A stretch of 64,000 nt of DNA from the IMG/VR virus record IMGVR_UViG_3300038443_001555; one strand, written 5' to 3'. The position numbers were made by a program, and so were the translations under genes. Shown here one piece after another: positions 1 through 36,523 of the stretch. The stretch comes from an uncultured virus (IMG/VR IMGVR_UViG_3300038443_001555). Lineage: Duplodnaviria > Heunggongvirae > Uroviricota > Caudoviricetes. The stretch's first letter is position 1. Each line of letters opens with the position of its first letter. The notes below the pieces were generated by a model. That model had not been told where the DNA came from. It was given only the letters and a program-made list of their open reading frames with translations, and did no database searches.

Positions 1-90
1 GCGGCGTGCGCATGATGACCAGGGCCTGAGCGCGCGTCAGGCCGTAGTGCTCCATGACATGCTCGAGCACCTGGTGAACGGTGGGTTTGC

Positions 91-24490: not shown

Positions 24491-24502
24491 ATTGCTAGGC
24501 AA

Positions 24503-24526
24503 AAATCATGCCATGTGGCATGATTT
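24503..24526. promoter_or_regulatory. perfect 11-bp inverted repeat AAATCATGCCA-TG-TGGCATGATTT overlapping an extended -10 (TG-G-CATGAT)
   Basis: Palindrome just upstream of the HTH gene ATG at 24531. Confidence 0.65.
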
Positions 24527-24530
24527 CGCC

Positions 24531-24818
24531 ATGCTAAGCGAGAAAATCAAACCCTACATCGAGCAAATCCGTCGGCGCGAGCTCACCAATCGCGAGGTAG
24601 CGGCCCTGCTCGGCACGCACGAAACCTACGTTTGCCGTGTGCTCAAGCGCATGAAGGTGGAGCGCGACCCAATCATCAAGCCGCCCAGCACCAAGGAGCT
24701 CAACGCTGCGCGCGCTGAATTCCGCCAGGAGGTCGCCACGACCATGACCGCGAAAGAAGCGGCCAAGGCGGCCGGCTGCAGCCTGCGTACCATCTACCGG
24801 ATCCGGGGCAAGAAATGA
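24531..24818 (+). CDS. tandem HTH DNA-binding protein
   Basis: LTNREVAALLGTHETYVCRVLKR and MTAKEAAKAAGCSLRTIYRIRG. Confidence 0.75.
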   Translation: MLSEKIKPYIEQIRRRELTNREVAALLGTHETYVCRVLKRMKVERDPIIKPPSTKELNAARAEFRQEVATTMTAKEAAKAAGCSLRTIYRIRGKK

Positions 24819-25386: not shown

Positions 25387-25481
25387 GCAAGAACACCGCC
25401 AAATGGATCCTGCGCGGTATTGTGCTGCTCTGGCTTTCGCTGCTAATTGCTAGCCTCATTACTGATTACTGCCGCACATGA
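25383..25481 (+). CDS. small membrane peptide (32 aa)
   Basis: GGAGG SD, GTGA and ATGA overlaps; WILRGIVLLWLSLLIASLI. Confidence 0.55.
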   Translation: MSKNTAKWILRGIVLLWLSLLIASLITDYCRT

Positions 25482-27172
25482 GCCACGCCGATCCCGCCCT
25501 CACCGAACACCTTCGCCGGCTCGAGCAGGCGCTGTTCAACAGCTACGACCTAGGCGACGTCGTGCGCTACCTCGAGGAGAAGACCTTCCTCAAGGGCGAC
25601 CGCTTTTCCTTTGTCGACCACGAATTCCAGAAGGACATCATCTCGGACACCAGCCGGGTGGTCTTCGTCCAGAAGTGCGCCCAGGTCGGCATGTCGGAGT
25701 GCTTCGCGCGCTACGGCCTGGCCGTGTCGCGCGTCATGCCCTACTTCTCGGTGATCATGACGCTGCCGTTCGCCAGCGACGCCGCCAACTTCGCCAAGAC
25801 CCGCATCGACCCCATCATCGACGAGTCGCCCGACTTGCGCGACTCGGTCGACAAGGAGCTCAATAACGCGGCGATCAAGTCGATCGGCACCAGCCTACTC
25901 TACATGCGCGGCTGCTCGGGCACGACGACCGCGCTGTCGGTGCCAGCCGACATGCTGATCCATGACGAGATCGACCGCTCGGATCCGGACACCTTGGCCC
26001 AGTTCCAGTCGCGCATCAAGCACAGCAAGTGGAAGCTGACGCGTCGCTTCGGCACGCCGACCGAGGATGGCCGCGGCATTGCGCTGGAAATGACGACGGC
26101 GCGCCGCATGCGCCGCGCCTGCACCTGCCACCTGTGCGGGCACCAGTTCGTCCCGAATTTCCACAAGCATGTCAAGATTCCGGACTACACTGGTGAATTC
26201 CGCGACATCAACAAGCACAACATCGACCAGCTGCGCTGGCAAGAAGCGCGCCTGCACTGCCCCAGCTGCGACGGCGAGCCGAGCCTGGCGCCCGAGCACC
26301 GGCAGTGGATCTGCGAAAACCCGAACGACCAGTTCGAGGCGGTCGGCTACTACGTCACGCCGTTCGAGGTGCCTAACGTCGTCACGATCCCGAGCCTGAT
26401 CCAGGAGATCACGAAGTACAAGACCTGGGCGGAATTCGTCAACCAGGCGCTGGGCGAGACAGCCGACGCCGGCAACAGCCAGCTGGTCGAGGAAGACATC
26501 GAGGCCTGCCGTGCCACGATCCCGCTGGCGTCCAGCGAGCTGCACGCCATGGGCATCGACGTCGGCCAGACCTGCCACATCGCGATCGGGCGCCGGACCC
26601 AGCAAGGCCAGCTGCTGGTGGTGCACAAGGAGCAGTGCCAGCTTGCCAAGCTTGCCGTGCGCCGGCGCGAGTTGGCGGCGAAGTGGCGCGTCCTGATCAC
26701 CGTGATCGACGCCTTCCCCGAGACCAACCTGGTGCACCAGATGCAGCGCCAGGACAAGAATCTCTACGGCGGCGTCTACGCGCAAAGCCGGCTGCTGGCC
26801 ACCTACAAGATCGTGATGGTCGACGAAAACAAGGCGGAAGGCAAGCTGCCGATCAACCAGGCGCAGATCATGCGCGACATCAATTTCGACGAGGTGATGG
26901 CGCTCTACAAGAACCGCGCGCTGCTGTGGGCGCCTACCGGCGACCACACCGACCGCCTGTGGTCGCTGCACATGCTGGACATGAAGCGGACCCAGGTGTT
27001 CGACAAGAACCAGGAGCTGGTCTACACCTGGCAGAAGTCGAAGGAAGGCAACGACCACTTCATGCATACCCTGGGCTACCTGCATGTGGCAAGCCAGCTG
27101 ATGGAGACCGCCTCGCGCGACATCCCGTTCTCGGGTGTCAGCCTGTTCTCAACCTTGCGCGTCAAGCATTGA
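25478..27172 (+). CDS. terL: terminase large subunit (lambda GpA-like)
   Basis: VQKCAQVGMSE Walker A, LIHDEID Walker B, GTPT motif, CxxC pairs, MGIDVG nuclease, NDHFMH. Confidence 0.92.
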   Translation: MSHADPALTEHLRRLEQALFNSYDLGDVVRYLEEKTFLKGDRFSFVDHEFQKDIISDTSRVVFVQKCAQVGMSECFARYGLAVSRVMPYFSVIMTLPFASDAANFAKTRIDPIIDESPDLRDSVDKELNNAAIKSIGTSLLYMRGCSGTTTALSVPADMLIHDEIDRSDPDTLAQFQSRIKHSKWKLTRRFGTPTEDGRGIALEMTTARRMRRACTCHLCGHQFVPNFHKHVKIPDYTGEFRDINKHNIDQLRWQEARLHCPSCDGEPSLAPEHRQWICENPNDQFEAVGYYVTPFEVPNVVTIPSLIQEITKYKTWAEFVNQALGETADAGNSQLVEEDIEACRATIPLASSELHAMGIDVGQTCHIAIGRRTQQGQLLVVHKEQCQLAKLAVRRRELAAKWRVLITVIDAFPETNLVHQMQRQDKNLYGGVYAQSRLLATYKIVMVDENKAEGKLPINQAQIMRDINFDEVMALYKNRALLWAPTGDHTDRLWSLHMLDMKRTQVFDKNQELVYTWQKSKEGNDHFMHTLGYLHVASQLMETASRDIPFSGVSLFSTLRVKH

Positions 27173-27305
27173 CAGCAGGAAATTTCTAGCGTAGCCTGCA
27201 ATTTCTCCGTCTTGATCGATCGGTGAACAGGCCGGGAGCTTCTGGCCTGTAAGGGCTGGGAGCTCCCGGCCGAGAACGAGCCCGCCACGCGCGGGCTTTT
27301 TCTTT
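27169..27305 (+). ncRNA. candidate small RNA unit: promoter, 19-bp GNRA hairpin, intrinsic terminator
   Basis: TTGACA-17-TAGCCT (27169-27197); hairpin 27230-27271; terminator 27279-27305. Confidence 0.6.
27279..27305 (+). terminator. intrinsic terminator
   Basis: AGCCCGC-CACGC-GCGGGCT followed by T tract. Confidence 0.8.
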
Positions 27306-27358
27306 CCTGCAATTTTTCCGTTGAAGCGAAGCAAGAGCTGTGCCATACTCCGGGCACT

Positions 27359-28960
27359 ATGCTCGATTCCATCCGTCAACGACTTGCCGCCGCGATCACG
27401 CCTAAGCCCAAGGGCGGCGCGACCACGCTCGCCCCGGTCACCGGCCAGCCGGTGATGCCGCTGGTCGAGACGCCGAAGGTGCCGAACAAGCAGACGACCC
27501 TGCCCGGCTACCTGCCAAACACGTCGTACATTTCCTCGCCGCTGACGAAGAACGACAGCCGCGCCGCCAGCACCGATCCGGCCGCGGCCGCGCGCCAGGC
27601 CGCGACCACGCCAGGCGTGATCCGGAGTCTGGCGCGCCTGACGCCCGACCTGTCGGCGTCCAAGAACGCATTCCTGCGCGTCGGCATTCCGGAAAAGTGG
27701 CACGTCAAGGCGCGCAACATCGACGGCTCGTTCAACCGCGACGCGACCGCGCTGGCCAACACCATCCTGCGCCAGTTCGATTTCATGCCCGACTACGCGT
27801 CGGGTTTTTCGCAGGTCTCGAGCCTGCGCTCGGTGTGCGAGTCGCTGGGTGGCGAGGGCCTCATTGAAGGCGCCATGGCGCTTGAGCTGGTGCTGGACAA
27901 GAACCGGCTGCCGTACAAGCTGCAGCCGGTGCCGACTTCGCAGATCGTCTTCGTCGAGGACAAGAACATCCAGTCGATCAAGCCGCAGCAGCTGCTGTCC
28001 GGCACCTACATCGACCTGGACATCCCGACCTTTTTCTATACCTCGCTCGACCAGGACTTGCTGACGGCCTACCCGATCAGCCCGCTGGAAAGCGCGGTGC
28101 AGCCGGTGCTGACCGCCGCGGAATTCGCCAACGACATGCGCCGGATCTGCAAGCGCGCCGTGTTCCCGCGCTACGACATCGAGATCGACGAGGAGAAGCT
28201 GCGCGAGCGCATCCCGCCCGAGGTCCTGAACGACAGCGAGGCCCTCAAGAAATTCATGAACGACACGATCAACTCGATCAATTCGGTCATCAACACGATG
28301 AACCCGGAAGACGCGATCGTGCACTTCGACTTTTTCACGGTGACCGTGGTCGACATGAAGACGGCCAACAGCGCCGAGAGCTTCGACACGGTCAAGGGCA
28401 TCATCGACGAGAAGGTGTCGACCGGCGCCAAGACCATGCCCTCGATCCTAGGCCACGGCTCGGGCTCGCAGAACGTCGCGTCGACCGAGACCATGGTCTT
28501 CATGATGAGCGCCAACGGCATCATCCGCCTGAAGCTGCAGGAGATCCTGTCGAAGGCCATGACGCTGGCCGTGCGCCTGTTCGGCATGGACGTCACCGTC
28601 GAATTCCTGTTCGACGATATCAACCTGCGCCCGACCCTGGAACTTGAGTCCTTCAAGTCGATGAAGCAGGCGCGCATCCTCGAGCAGCTCAGCCTCGGCT
28701 TTCTGACCGACGACGAAGCGTCGCTGGAACTGACCGGCGAGATGACGCCGGACGGCTTCACGCCGCTCTCGGGCACCGGCTTCTTCACGCCGATCACTGG
28801 TGGCGGTGGCCAGAGTCCGGATCCGGCCGCGGCGCCGCCGGGCGCCGGCGGCGACGGCACCTCGAAGAAGAAGGACAACCCGATGGGCAACAAGCAGGGC
28901 GCCGCCCAGCAGGCCGGCAAGCCGGACACCCCGAGCAAACCGAAAGGACCGCAGAAATGA
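27359..28960 (+). CDS. portal protein
   Basis: 533 aa between terL and protease; low-complexity C-tail; typical position and size. Confidence 0.85.
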   Translation: MLDSIRQRLAAAITPKPKGGATTLAPVTGQPVMPLVETPKVPNKQTTLPGYLPNTSYISSPLTKNDSRAASTDPAAAARQAATTPGVIRSLARLTPDLSASKNAFLRVGIPEKWHVKARNIDGSFNRDATALANTILRQFDFMPDYASGFSQVSSLRSVCESLGGEGLIEGAMALELVLDKNRLPYKLQPVPTSQIVFVEDKNIQSIKPQQLLSGTYIDLDIPTFFYTSLDQDLLTAYPISPLESAVQPVLTAAEFANDMRRICKRAVFPRYDIEIDEEKLRERIPPEVLNDSEALKKFMNDTINSINSVINTMNPEDAIVHFDFFTVTVVDMKTANSAESFDTVKGIIDEKVSTGAKTMPSILGHGSGSQNVASTETMVFMMSANGIIRLKLQEILSKAMTLAVRLFGMDVTVEFLFDDINLRPTLELESFKSMKQARILEQLSLGFLTDDEASLELTGEMTPDGFTPLSGTGFFTPITGGGGQSPDPAAAPPGAGGDGTSKKKDNPMGNKQGAAQQAGKPDTPSKPKGPQK

Positions 28961-30985: not shown

Positions 30986-32209
30986 ATGGCATTTTTCATC
31001 GATAAATCCGGCAATCCGCAGCACGTTCAAATCGACGCTGCTGTGTACGCTGCCGCCAAGGCCGACAAAAAGTCGGTCCCGCAATACCTGAACACCAAGT
31101 TCCATGCGGACGCGGACATGGCGAAGGGCTCGCCCTTCGCCCAGCTGTGCGCCTCGGAAGGTTTGATCACCTCGCCGAAGCAGAACGTCTTCGGCCTGCG
31201 CTCGCCGACCATCGCCGAGATCCTGGACGGCAAGTCCGGTTTCGAAGCGGCCAGCGGCACCAACACGCAGCAGCGCGGCAACCCGTACGGTTCGCAATCG
31301 CGCAACCTGTTCCCGGCCGCGGTGATCGCCGCGATCGAGTCGGCTGTCGATGTCGACCGCACCACCGACACCCAGATGTTCGACGGCATGATCGCCCAGA
31401 AGATCTCGATCGGCGGCGACACCTTCGAACAGCCGGTGATCAACTACACCATCCCGGGTGAGCAGGGTCCGACCAAGGCCAAGGCGCAGCGCGTCGTCCA
31501 GCTGGGCAACGTGCCGACCATCCTGCAGATCACCACGGCCGACAAGCCGCGTCGTCTGCCGACCTACGGTATCGGCATCGAGATGTCGGACCAGGCCGCC
31601 CGCGTCCAGACTCTGGACCTGCTGGCCATGACGGTCAAGCGCTACCTCGAGATCGAGAAGGACCAGCGCGTCTACAACTACATCTCGAGCCTGTTCGTCG
31701 GCGACAACGACATGGTGATCGGCACCGTGCCGACCGTCACCTCGACCTCGCTGGACGCCAATGCGGCCGGCGGCGTGATGACCCACAAGGCCTGGGTGAA
31801 GTGGCTGACCCTGAAGCGCAAGTCGCGCAAGATCACCCACGCGATCTGCGACATCGATACCTACCTGAAGATCGAAGCGCGCGCCGGCCGCCCGGGCCTG
31901 TCCGCCTACGATCCGCGCCTGCCGATCGTCGAAGCGCAGGCTCGCGTGTCGAACCTGGACTTCCAGGACGTGACCTTCTTCATCGTCGACGCAGCTGTCG
32001 ACGGCGGCCCGGTCCCGGCCGGCGAAGTCTGGGGTCTGGACGCCCGCAAGGCGATCACCTCGGTATCGAACACCGAAGCCGAGTACCAAGCGACCGAGAA
32101 CTTCATCCTGCGCCGCAGCTCGATGATGGTGATGCACTGGTCGCAGGAGGTGTACCGCACCTTCGGCGACGCCGAGCTGACCCCGTTCACTCGCCTGGTC
32201 ATCTCGTGA
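30986..32209 (+). CDS. major capsid protein
   Basis: 407 aa, strongly biased codons, followed by strong terminator; position. Confidence 0.85.
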   Translation: MAFFIDKSGNPQHVQIDAAVYAAAKADKKSVPQYLNTKFHADADMAKGSPFAQLCASEGLITSPKQNVFGLRSPTIAEILDGKSGFEAASGTNTQQRGNPYGSQSRNLFPAAVIAAIESAVDVDRTTDTQMFDGMIAQKISIGGDTFEQPVINYTIPGEQGPTKAKAQRVVQLGNVPTILQITTADKPRRLPTYGIGIEMSDQAARVQTLDLLAMTVKRYLEIEKDQRVYNYISSLFVGDNDMVIGTVPTVTSTSLDANAAGGVMTHKAWVKWLTLKRKSRKITHAICDIDTYLKIEARAGRPGLSAYDPRLPIVEAQARVSNLDFQDVTFFIVDAAVDGGPVPAGEVWGLDARKAITSVSNTEAEYQATENFILRRSSMMVMHWSQEVYRTFGDAELTPFTRLVIS

Positions 32210-32324: not shown

Positions 32325-32678
32325 ATGGCAGAAAATCAACGCGCATGGCTGCGCAACGAGGGCAGCTTCCCGATGGTCGATCCGGAGACCAACACCCGTT
32401 TCGAGCCGGGCGAGACCAAGAAGGCCGAAGTGACCGCTTGGGTCAAGAACCAGCCGGCCATCAAGCGCGTCACCGACCCGAACGACGACAGCCCGACCGA
32501 TCGCGAAGTGCAGAAGATCGAAGATCTGAACGCCGCCGACGAAGCCGCGCGCATTGAGCGCGAGCACATCGCCGAACGCGCGCAGCGCCTGGCGAACGGC
32601 CAAGTCCCGGTGGAGGAGGCCATCAGCCAGGCGAACGCGGAAGCTGCCGGTGCCACGCCGGCCACGCCGGCGACCTGA
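32325..32678 (+). CDS. hypothetical protein
   Basis: AAGGAG SD; upstream TTGCGC-17-AACAAT. Confidence 0.75.
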   Translation: MAENQRAWLRNEGSFPMVDPETNTRFEPGETKKAEVTAWVKNQPAIKRVTDPNDDSPTDREVQKIEDLNAADEAARIEREHIAERAQRLANGQVPVEEAISQANAEAAGATPATPAT

Positions 32679-32779
32679 GCATGCAGCCCAAGCTGATGGC
32701 CCTCCTGGTCCGCATGGCTTGCGCACGGATCGGCGCCGAATGGCGGATGAAACAGCAGCAGCTGCACGCCAGCTGAATG

Positions 32780-32807
32780 AAGCTCGCCACCCGGCGGGCT
32801 TTTCTTT
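32780..32807 (+). terminator. intrinsic terminator
   Basis: AAGCTCGCC-ACCC-GGCGGGCTT-TTCTTT. Confidence 0.75.
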
Positions 32808-32857
32808 GCCAAAAGCAATTTCTGTGCCACAATATCTCCTGCCCACAGGAGATCTTC

Positions 32858-33349
32858 ATGTCCACCAATCTCGTCACCACCGACAGCGTGCGCGCCGTCC
32901 TCGGCGTTTCTGCCAAAGAACTTCCCGACACCGTGCTGGGCAGCCAGGTTTACTCGACGCGCCTGCGCGAAGACCTGATCGACATGCACCCGCAGATCAT
33001 CAGCGACTTCGCCGCGATCGGCGCTCTGGCCAGCCCGACCAGCGACCAGCAGCGGTTCCTTGACCTGATGGAGACCTACGCGGCCTACAACGTGGCCAAG
33101 CAGTGCCTGGACGCCTTGCCCATGTTCTCGCCGCTGACCATCAAGGACGAGAAGGCCGAGCTCACGCGCAACGTCGACTCCTATAAGAATCTCAAGGCTG
33201 ACGTCAGCGCTGTGCTCTCGCTCATGAAGGGCAAGCTGCAGAAAGCCTACGCCGCCGTCAATCCGGACGCGCCGGCGCCGACCCCGGTTGACCGCATCTG
33301 GGGCGTGTCGGTCGGCCTTGGCAGCGATCCTGTCACCGCGACGAGCTAA
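32858..33349 (+). CDS. head-tail adaptor (putative)
   Basis: AGGAG SD; helical protein at head-completion position. Confidence 0.6.
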   Translation: MSTNLVTTDSVRAVLGVSAKELPDTVLGSQVYSTRLREDLIDMHPQIISDFAAIGALASPTSDQQRFLDLMETYAAYNVAKQCLDALPMFSPLTIKDEKAELTRNVDSYKNLKADVSAVLSLMKGKLQKAYAAVNPDAPAPTPVDRIWGVSVGLGSDPVTATS

Positions 33350-35216: not shown

Positions 35217-36473
35217 ATGCCCGCTCTCACCTACGCAAACTCCAGCCGCGAGCAGATCGCCTACATGCCGGAAGCCAGCTTCGGCACCATTCCTGGCACC
35301 GGCAACTGCTACGCTCTGCGCAACACCGGCGAATCGCTGGCCTTCTCGCTGACCAAGGAGAACGACAAGGAGATGAACGCGACGGCGCAGCTGACCTCGT
35401 CGACTACCACCTATGGCCAGGCCGACGGCGACATCAAGGTGCACGTCCAGTACGCTGAATATGACCGCCTGCTGGCTGGCCTGCTGCGCTCGAGCTGGAG
35501 TGCCTACGGCACCAACGGCGTCGGCACCGCTTTCGGCATCACCTCGATCACCGCCGGTACGGCTGGCGTAACCTCGACGGTCATCACCGCCTCCGCGGCG
35601 CCGACTGGCTCCAGCGCATTCAGCAACCTGGTCCCGGGCCAGTGGATCATGCTGGACCTGACCGGATCTTCGCCGGTGAACAACCCGCTGCGCAATCTGG
35701 TGCGCGTGCTGTCGACCAACGGCACGACCACGATCACGCTGGACCTGAACACCCCGCTGAAGGTCGAGGGTGCGCTGACCGGCGCCAAGATCTCGGGCTC
35801 GCGCCTGATGAACGGCACCACGCTGCAGCCGTTCACGATCGAGAAGCAGTCGCTGGATATCAACCAGTTCCAGACCTTCCGCGGCATGAACGTGTCGAAA
35901 TTCTCGACCTCGTTCGCTTCGAAAGCGCTGACCGAAGGTACCTTCACCTTCCTCGGCAAGGACATGCTGCGCAACGTCGTGACCCAGCTGCCCGGCGCGC
36001 CGGTGGCGTCGAACACCTACGACATCCAGAATGGTGTCAAGGGCATCGGCCAGCTGTGGGAAGGCGGCGCTCCGATCACCTCGACCTCGATCAAGTCGCT
36101 GTCGCTGGACGTCGACAGCGGCCTGCGCGCGCAGGACGCGGCCGGCAGCCTCGGCCTGGTCGGTATCGGCATCGGCACTTTCATGGTCAAGGGCACCCTG
36201 ACTGTGTATTTCGCCAACGGCAGCCTGTACGACAAATTCCTGGCTGACCAGTACACTTCGCTGATCGTGTCGACCCAGGACAGCGCGAGCAACGGCTACG
36301 TGCTCACCTTGCCGCGCGTCATGCTGACCACTGGCAAAGTGGTGGCCGGCTCGAAGGACACCGATGTCATGGCCGTGTTCGACTACGTCGCATACGCTGA
36401 CATGCAGAACGCCAACGCCGCGCTGCGCAAGACCTTGATCATCGATCGCGTCGGCGACGCCGTGGCGCCGTAA
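35217..36473 (+). CDS. major tail tube protein
   Basis: E..FGT.P...LRNTGESL, FTIEKQ..D..QF..FRGM, GTLTVYF..LYDKF: siphovirus tube family. Confidence 0.85.
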   Translation: MPALTYANSSREQIAYMPEASFGTIPGTGNCYALRNTGESLAFSLTKENDKEMNATAQLTSSTTTYGQADGDIKVHVQYAEYDRLLAGLLRSSWSAYGTNGVGTAFGITSITAGTAGVTSTVITASAAPTGSSAFSNLVPGQWIMLDLTGSSPVNNPLRNLVRVLSTNGTTTITLDLNTPLKVEGALTGAKISGSRLMNGTTLQPFTIEKQSLDINQFQTFRGMNVSKFSTSFASKALTEGTFTFLGKDMLRNVVTQLPGAPVASNTYDIQNGVKGIGQLWEGGAPITSTSIKSLSLDVDSGLRAQDAAGSLGLVGIGIGTFMVKGTLTVYFANGSLYDKFLADQYTSLIVSTQDSASNGYVLTLPRVMLTTGKVVAGSKDTDVMAVFDYVAYADMQNANAALRKTLIIDRVGDAVAP

Positions 36474-36495: not shown

Positions 36496-36523
36496 GGGCG
36501 CGACTTCGGTCGCGCCCTTTTTT
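36496..36523 (+). terminator. intrinsic terminator (UUCG loop)
   Basis: GGGCGCGAC-TTCG-GTCGCGCCC-TTTTTT. Confidence 0.9.

Follow-up and report, generated by a model that had tools for sequence, protein, structure and literature searches.

The spacer between the large terminase gene (terL) and the portal gene of this phage contains a small accessory cassette, which, judged from its sequence, is somewhat better than an even bet (probability roughly 0.55) to be a terminator-proximal 3'-end RNA module that is equipped here with its own promoter. The window, i.e. the whole stretch of 64,000 nucleotides that was analyzed, comes from an uncultured virus of the class Caudoviricetes. According to this reading the cassette would consist of a host-type promoter at or near the upstream stop codon, a variable hairpin region and a conserved 3' core with a terminator. 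Core and terminator would end the transcripts that arrive from terL as well as those that start at the cassette promoter. Such transcripts would gain a doubly hairpinned, exonuclease-resistant 3' end, and the module would also shield the nearby portal promoter from read-through. Transcription from the cassette promoter would yield a stable RNA of about 100 nt, reaching from about 27204 to 27303. Because the core is conserved in sequence and not in shape alone, a host or phage factor probably recognizes it.

Anatomy of the cassette and its neighborhood

The upstream neighbor of the cassette is terL (25478–27172, + strand), a 564-aa ORF with a TGA stop at 27170–27172. The cassette, which is encoded on the same strand, opens with a promoter-like site (27169–27197) in which TTGACA (27169–27174) overlaps this stop and is followed after 17 nt by TAGCCT (27192–27197). 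Further downstream the RNA can form a long hairpin of 19 pairs with a GUAA loop (27230–27271). An intrinsic terminator comes next (27278–27305), with a stem at 27278–27298 and then a TTTTTCTTT T-run to 27305. These elements had been listed in a preliminary description of the locus and can all be read directly in the sequence. The terminator hairpin has eight pairs, six of them G-C, and a loop of 5 nt; pairs of the GAGA/UCUU type lengthen the base of its stem. Only two strong + strand terminators are called between 23000 and 42000, and one of them is the terminator of the cassette.

The conserved core (27251–27274) comprises an unpaired AAGGG, the G+C hairpin P3 and GAG, and includes the columns that are invariant in relatives. 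In P3 (27254–27271) nucleotides 27254–27260 pair with 27265–27271 around an AGCT loop. The 5' arm of the long hairpin, P2 (27230–27247), is a near-copy of P3: the two arms are direct repeats, 83% identical and 24 nt apart, and each of them is an 18-nt near-palindrome. Since the arms are both near-palindromic and mutually repeated, two 7-bp hairpins represent an alternative to the long fold. A repeat search furthermore detected two 16-nt direct repeats, identical at 15 of 16 positions, with the hairpins and the terminator between them. Copy 1 (CCTGCAATTTCTCCGT) occupies 27195–27210 and copy 2, immediately upstream of the portal promoter, 27306–27321; the latter is the counterpart of the post-terminator sequence in the relatives L006 and L013. 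No further copies of the repeat CCTGCAATTTYTCCGT exist in the window, and hence it is not a general promoter motif. Both the repeated, near-palindromic arms and the repeats that bracket the unit had been missed in the preliminary description.

The + strand of 27169–27310 folds with a minimum free energy of −76.9 kcal/mol, compared with −50.8 ± 4.2 kcal/mol for shuffled sequences (z −6.22), and none of 200 shuffles folds as well. The fold of the − strand is worse, as its upper stem is broken where the + strand has G-U pairs. The earlier statement that no ORF with a Shine-Dalgarno sequence lies inside the cassette is borne out: no ORF with a ribosome-binding site is present there, and by eye only a 9-codon GTG frame can be found. 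In relatives the P3 loop varies between 3 and 5 nt and the terminator loop between 3 and 6 nt; these changes shift the reading frame, which indicates that the element is non-coding.

The portal protein downstream belongs to phrog_3753 (E 7.5e-74), and its N-terminus aligns from residue 1. The gene is preceded by a promoter-like site (27321–27361, + strand) with TTGAAG and, at a spacing of 17 nt, an extended −10 (TG-C-CATACT). The ATG of the portal gene lies 9 nt past this −10 region, and a Shine-Dalgarno sequence is absent. Relatives have the same promoter layout between terminator and portal ATG, which agrees with the previous suggestion that the portal has a promoter-like site of its own after the terminator. 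The mRNA of the portal gene seems to begin at its own ATG or no more than 3 nt away from it and to be leaderless; this promoter is a second testable oddity beside the cassette.

TerL is of the lambda gpA type (Pfam GpA_ATPase PF05876, E 1.3e-14). The closest cultured TerL proteins, from Vibrio SHOU24-like, Caulobacter Seuss and Pseudomonas PMBT3 phages, are at most 30% identical. A nucleotide search against 50,697 phage records gave no match to the window, and a TerL search of genome contigs found nothing. In IMG/VR 21 loci are related by TerL; a metagenome scan returned only two distant loci, both already known. Eight sequencing runs contain the sequence; all are from soil, rhizosphere or biocrust DNA and none is an RNA run, and the reads of four of them yielded no information on transcripts. 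The window encodes DNA polymerase, ligase, thymidylate synthase and SbcCD, and neither an integrase nor a repressor was found among 63 scanned window ORFs. The phage thus looks lytic from its gene content. Given these replication genes and the lack of an integrase in the window, expression from a prophage is unlikely. A small HTH protein, encoded at 24492–24818, weakly matches the late transcriptional activator family phrog_836 (E 9e-6).

Distribution and conservation in related phages

The cassette is carried by a clade of uncultured soil phages of about 85–93 kb. It is placed behind either terL or a small additional gene downstream of terL, and mostly just ahead of the portal promoter. The model R1 of the element gives one match each, with 73–92 bits, in nine of ten close relatives. 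The score drops to 45 bits for L011 and to 27 bits for L014-16, and the cassette is weaker in the 66–67% TerL group; in L009/10 the terminator part alone scores. The model has no match in L005 or L017-L021, and 12 further, more distant loci with related portals gave no match at E≤0.1. A terminator-anchored pattern produced two chance matches in genome contigs, both without P3.

Among complete genomes, four have exactly one copy each, and G004, a 100%-complete close relative, has none. This distribution shows, at the level of sequence, that the cassette is single-copy, accessory and dispensable. The terL 3' spacer varies in length from 60 to 2844 nt and is a hot spot that contains protein-coding extras and has breakpoints exactly at the terL stop. 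Insulation of the portal promoter cannot be essential, because L005/G004 lacks any terminator between terL and portal. Adjacency to this promoter is not obligatory either, since in L007 2.7 kb separate the cassette from the portal gene.

The comparison of relatives reveals which parts of the cassette are maintained. The consensus fold of nine elements contains a P3 hairpin of 7–8 bp and the terminator, with three pairs changed on both sides. In an alignment of 11 elements, which had been fitted to the model and so favors structure, 97.2% of the cells are paired and seven pairs are changed on both sides; none of 500 shuffles equals this. All 11 aligned elements have the terminator, with 97.7% of its cells paired, and both-side changes occur in 5 of its 12 pairs. 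Covarying stems are, for example, GCCUGC/GCAGGC in L004 and GCCCAC/GUGGGC in L011. When the two variable pairs of P3 were left free in a search, 53 of 54 matches paired at both positions, in eight different paired combinations plus one C-A. The commonest halves of P3, GGTTGGG/CCCGGCC, are asymmetric as DNA and pair as RNA only via two G-U pairs; the loops in relatives have 3–5 nt and are of the RGNU type. Together, these comparative data show that selection has maintained the core as an RNA structure of the + strand.

The long hairpin has a different status. It is the minimum-energy fold in only 3 of 11 elements, namely the window, L007 (where the stem is 8+10 bp with an internal loop) and, marginally, L001; seven of the 11 fold best with the short P2 and P3 hairpins only. 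P2 is different but homologous in L001, L002, L006, L007 and L008, and the 5' part is the least conserved part of the cassette. The 19-bp hairpin exists only because the 5' arm in the window became a near-copy of P3, and by this comparison it is a local by-product and not a conserved feature. The alignment of spacers, to which the preliminary description had looked for structural conservation, thus upholds P3 and the terminator and leaves out the hairpin from which that description had started. The 19-bp stem of the window is a possible RNase III site, which would not be a conserved property.

The evidence for a promoter comes mainly from recurrence. A scan of 26000–28500 called no promoter; TAGCCT matches the −10 consensus at three of six positions and falls below the criterion of the tool, so that the promoter in the window is plausible on sequence only. 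The site is homologous to a TTGACA-16-TATCAT-type site which precedes a small ORF in L001-L004 and L008. Upstream of the terminator, at a distance of no more than 190 nt (55–170 nt), 11 of 12 elements have either an extended −10 or a TTGnnn-16..18-TAnnnT motif; the background for these motifs is 0.039 and 0.031 per 150 nt. The sites lie in at least four different sequence contexts, and both L002 and L014 carry duplicates of tiny promoter-terminator units. With a promoter-like motif retained in 11 of the 12 elements, the cassette can fairly be regarded as a self-contained unit that runs from promoter to terminator, and a terminated RNA of about 100 nt from the window cassette is plausible. The dedicated small RNA of the preliminary description survives in part: it agrees with the + strand-specific structure, the terminator and the recurrent promoter-like motif, and it is weakened by the −10 that the scan did not call and by the capsid-linked cores described below, which lack a promoter motif.

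The core behind capsid genes and its interpretation

In IMG/VR the exact 24-nt core followed by a terminator is present at 55 loci, many of which are near-identical, so that they stem from no more than a handful of independent lineages. At 42 of the 55 the distance from the stop of the major capsid gene of other phages to the start of the core is −2 to 17 nt; the identity of the capsid gene was verified in 10 representatives. The phages that share the core have unrelated capsid and terminase genes, and the terminator stems that follow the capsid-linked cores are mutually unrelated. By eye no conserved promoter motif was seen upstream of these 42 cores. With 42 of 55 copies directly behind a capsid stop, the core is not conserved as an independent unit wherever it is present, and its location right behind the capsid genes of unrelated phages argues for a signal at transcript ends and not for a packaging RNA. 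A loose P3 pattern gave chiefly chance matches in coding sequence, with AAG upstream in 12 of 81. An attenuator with alternative pairing between P3 and terminator is conceivable by eye in the capsid-context group and is absent from the window.

Known RNA families do not account for the motif. Rfam, to which the preliminary description had pointed, returned no family at gathering score over the whole window. The eight matches up to E 10 in 27100–27400 were all below threshold (e.g. isrB with 21 bits versus 35 and Trp_leader with 20.6 versus 41), and pRNA was not among them. Nothing was found on the capsid-context loci, and Rfam 15 contains no family for the 24-nt core motif. Judged by eye, none of the following seems to fit the conserved positions: CsrA-type GGA sites, a K-turn, a tRNA T-arm, HDV-like ribozymes, type III antitoxin repeats and CRISPR-repeat mimics. 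A literature search found no description of the motif in the accessible parts of the publications, including PMC7657543, PMC5737381 and PMC10690425, and the motif string does not occur in the searchable part (six files) of the PMC10690425 supplement. The motif may already be listed, unnamed, elsewhere in the catalogue PMC5737381 or PMC10690425.

A trans-acting small RNA or protein decoy, in which the core binds a factor or pairs with a target and the capsid-gene copies are 3'-UTR-derived versions of the same RNA, is a possible but rather doubtful explanation. It would agree with the promoter-like motif in 11 of 12 elements and several unrelated contexts, with the duplicated mini-units in L002 and L014, and with a core sequence that stays constant in unrelated phages, although the terminator stems are exchanged. 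Bacterial small RNAs are usually built with a U-tailed terminator preceded by a purine-rich tract, and the cassette has both. However, the 42 capsid-linked cores without a visible promoter motif do not fit this explanation, and the 5' part, the usual seed region, is conserved least. An exact-complement scan found at most 12 nt of perfect complementarity between the RNA and the rest of the window, which is about chance, and a complete close relative lives without the element.

A plain role as stabilizer or terminator leaves the conservation of AAGGG, GAG and the P3 sequence unexplained while terminator stems are freely replaced. An unlikely explanation, less probable than the small RNA, is that AAGGG-hairpin-GAG is the site of an RNA-binding factor that marks the ends of capsid messages and has been freed here as a promoter-driven decoy or regulatory RNA. 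The factor could then belong to a host RNA-decay, termination or defense pathway, or be a phage protein.

Control by antitermination, in the manner of nut, put or Q, is improbable. P3 would load a phage factor onto RNA polymerase, which would then pass the terminator into the portal and head genes, and the short RNA would be the unmodified product, like lambda 6S. In lambda PR'-tR' and cro-nutR-tR1 a promoter, a hairpin, a strong terminator and essential late genes follow each other in the order seen here; a word resembling boxA (CGCUCU, by eye) occurs in P2 of L006, L007 and L008, and the HTH protein at 24492–24818 has its weak phrog_836 match. Nevertheless, a separate conserved promoter precedes the portal gene, which has no ribosome-binding site for internal initiation. 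The boxA-like word is absent from the window, L003, L004 and L013; the 3–5-nt RGNU-type loop of P3 is no GNRA-like pentaloop. In the window no pairing was found that competes with the terminator, and L005 needs no such device.

Equally little, or slightly less, can be expected of a signal at the DNA level, in which a protein would bind to the two tandem 18-bp palindromes, or these would promote the exchange of modules as a conserved boundary at a recombination hot spot. The two near-identical palindromes 24 bp apart, the breakpoints exactly at the terL stop of the post-terL hot spot and the direct repeats flanking the unit suggest such a role. Against it, the halves of P3 are asymmetric as DNA, + strand RNA pairing is kept in 53 of 54 matches, the second P3-like palindrome exists only in the window, and the − strand folds worse. 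A packaging RNA which acts with terminase and portal as an analogue of phi29 pRNA, a role raised in the preliminary description, can practically be dismissed, because beyond the terL-portal position nothing points to it: Rfam gave no pRNA match up to E 10, the terminase is complete and of the lambda gpA type, neither the complete close relative G004 nor any of the 12 more distant loci has the element, and the core is found elsewhere chiefly behind capsid genes.

The preferred reading, a 3'-end module attached to a terminator, has a wider meaning. Terminators of structural genes are ordinary; an attached 24-nt hairpin motif that is conserved in sequence is not, and the fact that unrelated phages share it suggests that a specific factor recognizes it. 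The clade of the window offers a natural experiment, in which a single copy with its own promoter can be compared with a complete sister phage that lacks the core. Identification of this factor, if achieved, would explain how phages control what becomes of the late messages that are most abundant, and it would provide a compact and portable 3'-end module.

Comparison with known systems

Terminators and 3' stabilizers stand behind highly expressed structural genes of phages, as the T-phi terminator follows gene 10 of T7. The cassette shares with terminators of this type the G+C hairpin and U-run of the coding strand at a structural-gene boundary, followed by a new promoter, and 42 of the 55 exact cores are likewise directly behind the major capsid gene. 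It differs from them by the additional, sequence-conserved AAGGG-P3-GAG hairpin immediately 5' of the terminator; in the clade of the window, moreover, the unit follows terL and has its own promoter-like site.

The cassette also resembles the morons, a concept attributed to Hendrix and colleagues for extra genes of lambdoid phages that lie between late genes with their own promoter and terminator. Like these, it has a terminator and, as judged from the sequence, a promoter-like site of its own, is located between conserved late genes and is patchy in close relatives. In contrast to morons its cargo is a structured RNA without an ORF, and the phage looks lytic.

The name of the Rfam family Mu-gpT-DE (RF03012) denotes a conserved RNA located after Mu-gpT-like major head genes, and most copies of the present core have this location too, but the covariance model of the family does not match the present motif. 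It was not among the matches up to E 10 on positions 1440–1640 of locus L187, and none of five records scored above the cut-off; the best scores were 7.8–13.2 bits versus 49 and lay away from the motif.

With phi29 pRNA the cassette has in common that a small structured phage RNA is encoded near packaging genes; it differs in the lack of a model match, the type of terminase, its dispensable and patchy nature and its loops of only 3–5 nt. The 6S and nut layouts of lambda likewise have a strong terminator before late genes, preceded by a promoter and a short transcript with structure. No antiterminator gene was identified in the present case, and the cassette departs from the lambda arrangement in that a separate conserved promoter follows the terminator and boxA and boxB are not conserved.

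The terL-portal cassette and its setting

The window is a piece of phage genome with a G+C content of about 63%. Replication and nucleotide-metabolism genes form a leftward block, and a rightward structural block starting at about 24.5 kb contains TerL (25478-27172; Pfam GpA_ATPase), the portal (27359-28960; phrog_3753), an S49 protease, the major head protein (30986-32209) and tail genes. A DNA polymerase fragment, a ligase, a thymidylate synthase, an SbcCD-like nuclease and HNH genes suggest that the phage is lytic; no integrase was found among the 63 window ORFs scanned. TerL shares at most 30% identity with cultured phages, and DNA of the window was found in metagenome runs from soil and rhizosphere. 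The structural block is headed by a 108-aa helix-turn-helix protein (24492-24818) with weak matches to phrog_664 (4.9e-8, DNA-binding) and phrog_836 (9e-6, late-transcriptional-activator); this protein may regulate the repeated promoters with the words AAGCAA..TGTGCCA.

All items listed in the preliminary description were found in the 186-nt gap between terL and portal. These are a promoter-like TTGACA-17 nt-TAGCCT (27169-27197), in which TTGACA overlaps the terL stop, a 19-pair hairpin capped by a GUAA loop (27230-27271) and an intrinsic terminator (27278-27298, T-run to 27305). The minimum free energy of the + strand is -76.9 kcal/mol versus -50.8 +/- 4.2 for shuffled sequences (z -6.22), and none of 200 shuffles was as good. 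The upper stem is lost in the - strand fold, because its four G-U pairs turn into C-A. Both hairpin arms are 18-nt near-palindromes and direct repeats of each other (83% identical, 24 nt apart). The hairpins and the terminator are flanked by the two copies of a direct repeat of 16 nt (27195-27210 and 27306-27321, 15/16 identical); with a 2-nt gap the repeat lengthens to about 25 nt. In two relatives, L006 and L013, its second copy is the usual sequence 5' of the portal promoter; judged from these sequences it therefore looks as if the 111-bp unit arose by recombination in that stretch, through either acquisition or duplication.

The portal gene lacks a Shine-Dalgarno sequence, and its ATG is preceded, at a distance of 5-9 nt, by an extended -10 (TG-n-CATACT/GATACT/CAnAAT; window 27321-27361), and by our own reading the same layout occurs in about 19 further relatives' loci (among L001-L018 and L057-L064). 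The -10 is within an inverted repeat (TGCC..GGCA) ending at the ATG. This suggests that the portal mRNA may be leaderless and that the ATG would be hidden within a hairpin on read-through transcripts. Besides the cassette terminator, the structural block has just one strong intrinsic terminator on the + strand (36496-36517; 9 pairs, 8 of them G-C, UUCG loop); it comes after a 418-aa tail gene (35217-36473).

A conserved RNA hairpin joined to a terminator

An IMG/VR search with TerL gave 21 loci with 30-100% identity, many of them on contigs of 82-93 kb. The terL-portal distance in the ten closest phages is 60, 172, 186, 203, 525, 553, 554, 601, 675 and 2844 nt; the DNA 3' of terL forms a hot spot for insertions, with the loss of homology starting precisely at the terL stop. 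A recognisable element with the same terminator is present in nine of these ten (the window, L001-L004, L006-L008 and L013), a count that leaves out L012, the duplicate of the window. The L005 spacer has 60 nt only. The 5' parts of the elements are wholly different, and the sequences can be aligned from "YAAGGG" onward.

The consensus fold of the nine elements is a 7-8-bp hairpin (P3, 27254-27260 with 27265-27271) adjoining the terminator. The 19-pair hairpin emphasized in the preliminary description exists in the window, but it is not the consensus. The minimum-energy fold consists of separate P2 (27230-27247, the 5' arm of the long hairpin) and P3 hairpins in 7 of 11 elements; L004 is borderline (-76.8 vs -76.7 kcal/mol), and the long form is favoured in three, namely the window (-66.8 vs -56.1 kcal/mol with P3 forced), L007 and, marginally, L001. 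Between P2 and P3 of the window 15 of 18 positions agree, and this P2 is closer to that P3 than to the P2 of relatives; the long hairpin is therefore a local elaboration.

In 11 aligned elements, with the caveat that the alignment had been fitted to the covariance model, 97.2% of the cells are paired and seven pairs are changed on both sides, which 0 of 500 shuffles match. The terminator stem is for instance GCCUGC/GCAGGC in L004 and GCCCAC/GUGGGC in L011; in P3 one pair becomes A-U in L014 and another U-G in L002. A less biased test of P3 used a collection-wide pattern in which two variable pairs were left free and the sole requirements were the flanks and a T-run further downstream. At both free positions 53 of 54 matches pair, with eight paired combinations and one C-A. 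The commonest form, GGUUGGG/CCCGGCC, contains two G-U pairs and pairs only as + strand RNA; this is evidence against a symmetric DNA site and makes a DNA-level role of the element a weak alternative. Since the loops vary in length (P3 3-5 nt, terminator 3-6 nt), no reading frame is preserved. These data show that an RNA hairpin on the + strand, conserved in sequence, is joined directly to an intrinsic terminator.

Distribution in the clade and behind capsid genes

The covariance model R1, built from the nine-element alignment, gave one strong match in each of the nine (73-92 bits) and weaker ones in L011 (45 bits) and L014-L016 (27 bits). It matched the terminator part only in L009 and L010, and nothing in L005 and L017-L021. 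Over whole contigs there was one copy in each of four complete genomes and none in G004, the complete genome of the L005 phage. A search with the portal extended the set by 11 contigs that are more distant. R1 had no significant match in 12 distant loci (sole hit E 0.26, opposite strand), most of which have the portal promoter directly after terL. From this distribution it follows that the element is accessory, single-copy and limited to a subclade.

The spacers carry various other sequences. In L001-L004 and L008, terL and the element are separated by a 99-aa ORF that matches no known family. L011 has two small ORFs, one of them phrog_2428; L014 has a 55-aa ORF and a 78-aa ORF (phrog_3540), L018 an ORF of about 190 aa and L007 2.7 kb of opposite-strand DNA. 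The window itself has a second terminator-plus-promoter junction at 32777-32860, with the same promoter words AAGCAATTTCTGTGCCACAAT as at 27329-27349. Its 24-nt leader forms a hairpin that includes AGGAG, the ribosome-binding site for the gene that begins at 32858, and a candidate 31-codon ORF (32681-32776) occupies the space from the preceding gene's end at 32678 to the terminator near 32780. R1 scores only 12.9 bits at this junction and P3 is absent there.

The preliminary description had also proposed an independent RNA gene of about 100 nt. The promoter-like site of the window combines a perfect -35 with the best spacing, and its -10 has only 3 of 6 matches; the promoter scan did not call the site. 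An extended -10 (TGnTAnnnT) or TTGnnn-16..18-TAnnnT is found at most 190 nt 5' of the terminator in 11 of 12 elements; in 338 kb of these loci the background is 0.039 and 0.031 per 150 nt. The contexts differ: the stop codon of the 99-aa ORF, TGTGGTAGAGT just past the terL stop (also in L018 and L014), TTGAAC-17-TACAGT/TAGAGT in the distant group and TTGACA-17-TAGCCT in the window. As sequence evidence, these sites support a predicted RNA of about 100 nt in the window that is transcribed on its own. L002 and L014 have two promoter-terminator mini-units in tandem. Tiny units of this type precede the portal promoter, in tandem or alone, in L002 (5166-5250), L014 (5156-5343) and L009 (4755-4833); their predicted RNAs are about 40-75 nt, and in some units the terminator hairpin follows the -10 almost directly.

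The 24-nt core (27251-27274), searched in IMG/VR as AAGGG, P3 with Y/R freedom and GAG, occurs exactly in 55 loci. Eight belong to the clade of the window. In 42 it starts -2 to 17 nt past the stop of a gene that encodes about 301-309 aa (L219: 410 aa), with a terminator coming next; the context of contig-truncated copies was judged via near-identical upstream sequence. An outer terminator-like stem encloses P3 in two loci, and three without a terminator look like chance matches in coding sequence. Among ten representatives in which the upstream gene was checked, Phage_capsid_4 and/or Mu-like_gpT was above the cut-off in L187, L189 and seven of a further batch of eight; the gene in L219 matches another major head family, phrog_1357. 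The core is nearly invariant. The terminator stems after it in these capsid-context loci are unrelated to that of the window (e.g. GGGGC-UUCG-GCCCC), and by eye no conserved promoter motif was seen upstream. The core occurs behind capsid genes of unrelated phages; in the clade of the window it stands behind terL with its own promoter-like site and is dispensable. The Rfam family Mu-gpT-DE (RF03012) was considered as the identity of the motif and rejected, as its model gives no match there; no other Rfam family matches the motif in the capsid-context loci. In one of these, L230, a possible tRNA gene starts after 1324, about 15 nt past the terminator of the motif (by eye).

Possible function and known systems

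We propose that the core acts as a terminator-proximal 3'-end module, which would end the transcript and provide it with two adjacent hairpins. Because the sequence and not the shape alone is conserved, a still hypothetical factor likely recognises the core. In the window the module would also end the RNA of about 100 nt from its own promoter and keep read-through off the portal promoter. Two points count against this proposal: a plain stabiliser does not need conserved flanks, and L005 shows that neither termination nor insulation is essential at this spot.

In the main rival reading the RNA itself may function in trans, either as a small RNA or as a decoy. The conserved promoter-like sites suit such a product better than they suit a 3'-end module. 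Three observations suit it less well: the capsid-context copies have no promoter, the 5' part is not conserved, and no complementary target was found in the window. An antitermination site is a weak alternative. The analogy to packaging pRNA in the preliminary description failed every test that could be made.

A catalogue from 2023 lists over 10,000 structured viral RNA candidates, of which 1,241 from IMG/VR have predicted terminators (PMC10690425), and the motif may be one of these; its string was not found in the six supplement files that the search covered. The nearest known systems are morons and the terminators and 3' hairpin stabilisers that follow structural genes of phages. The cassette is a new sequence-defined variant of these types.
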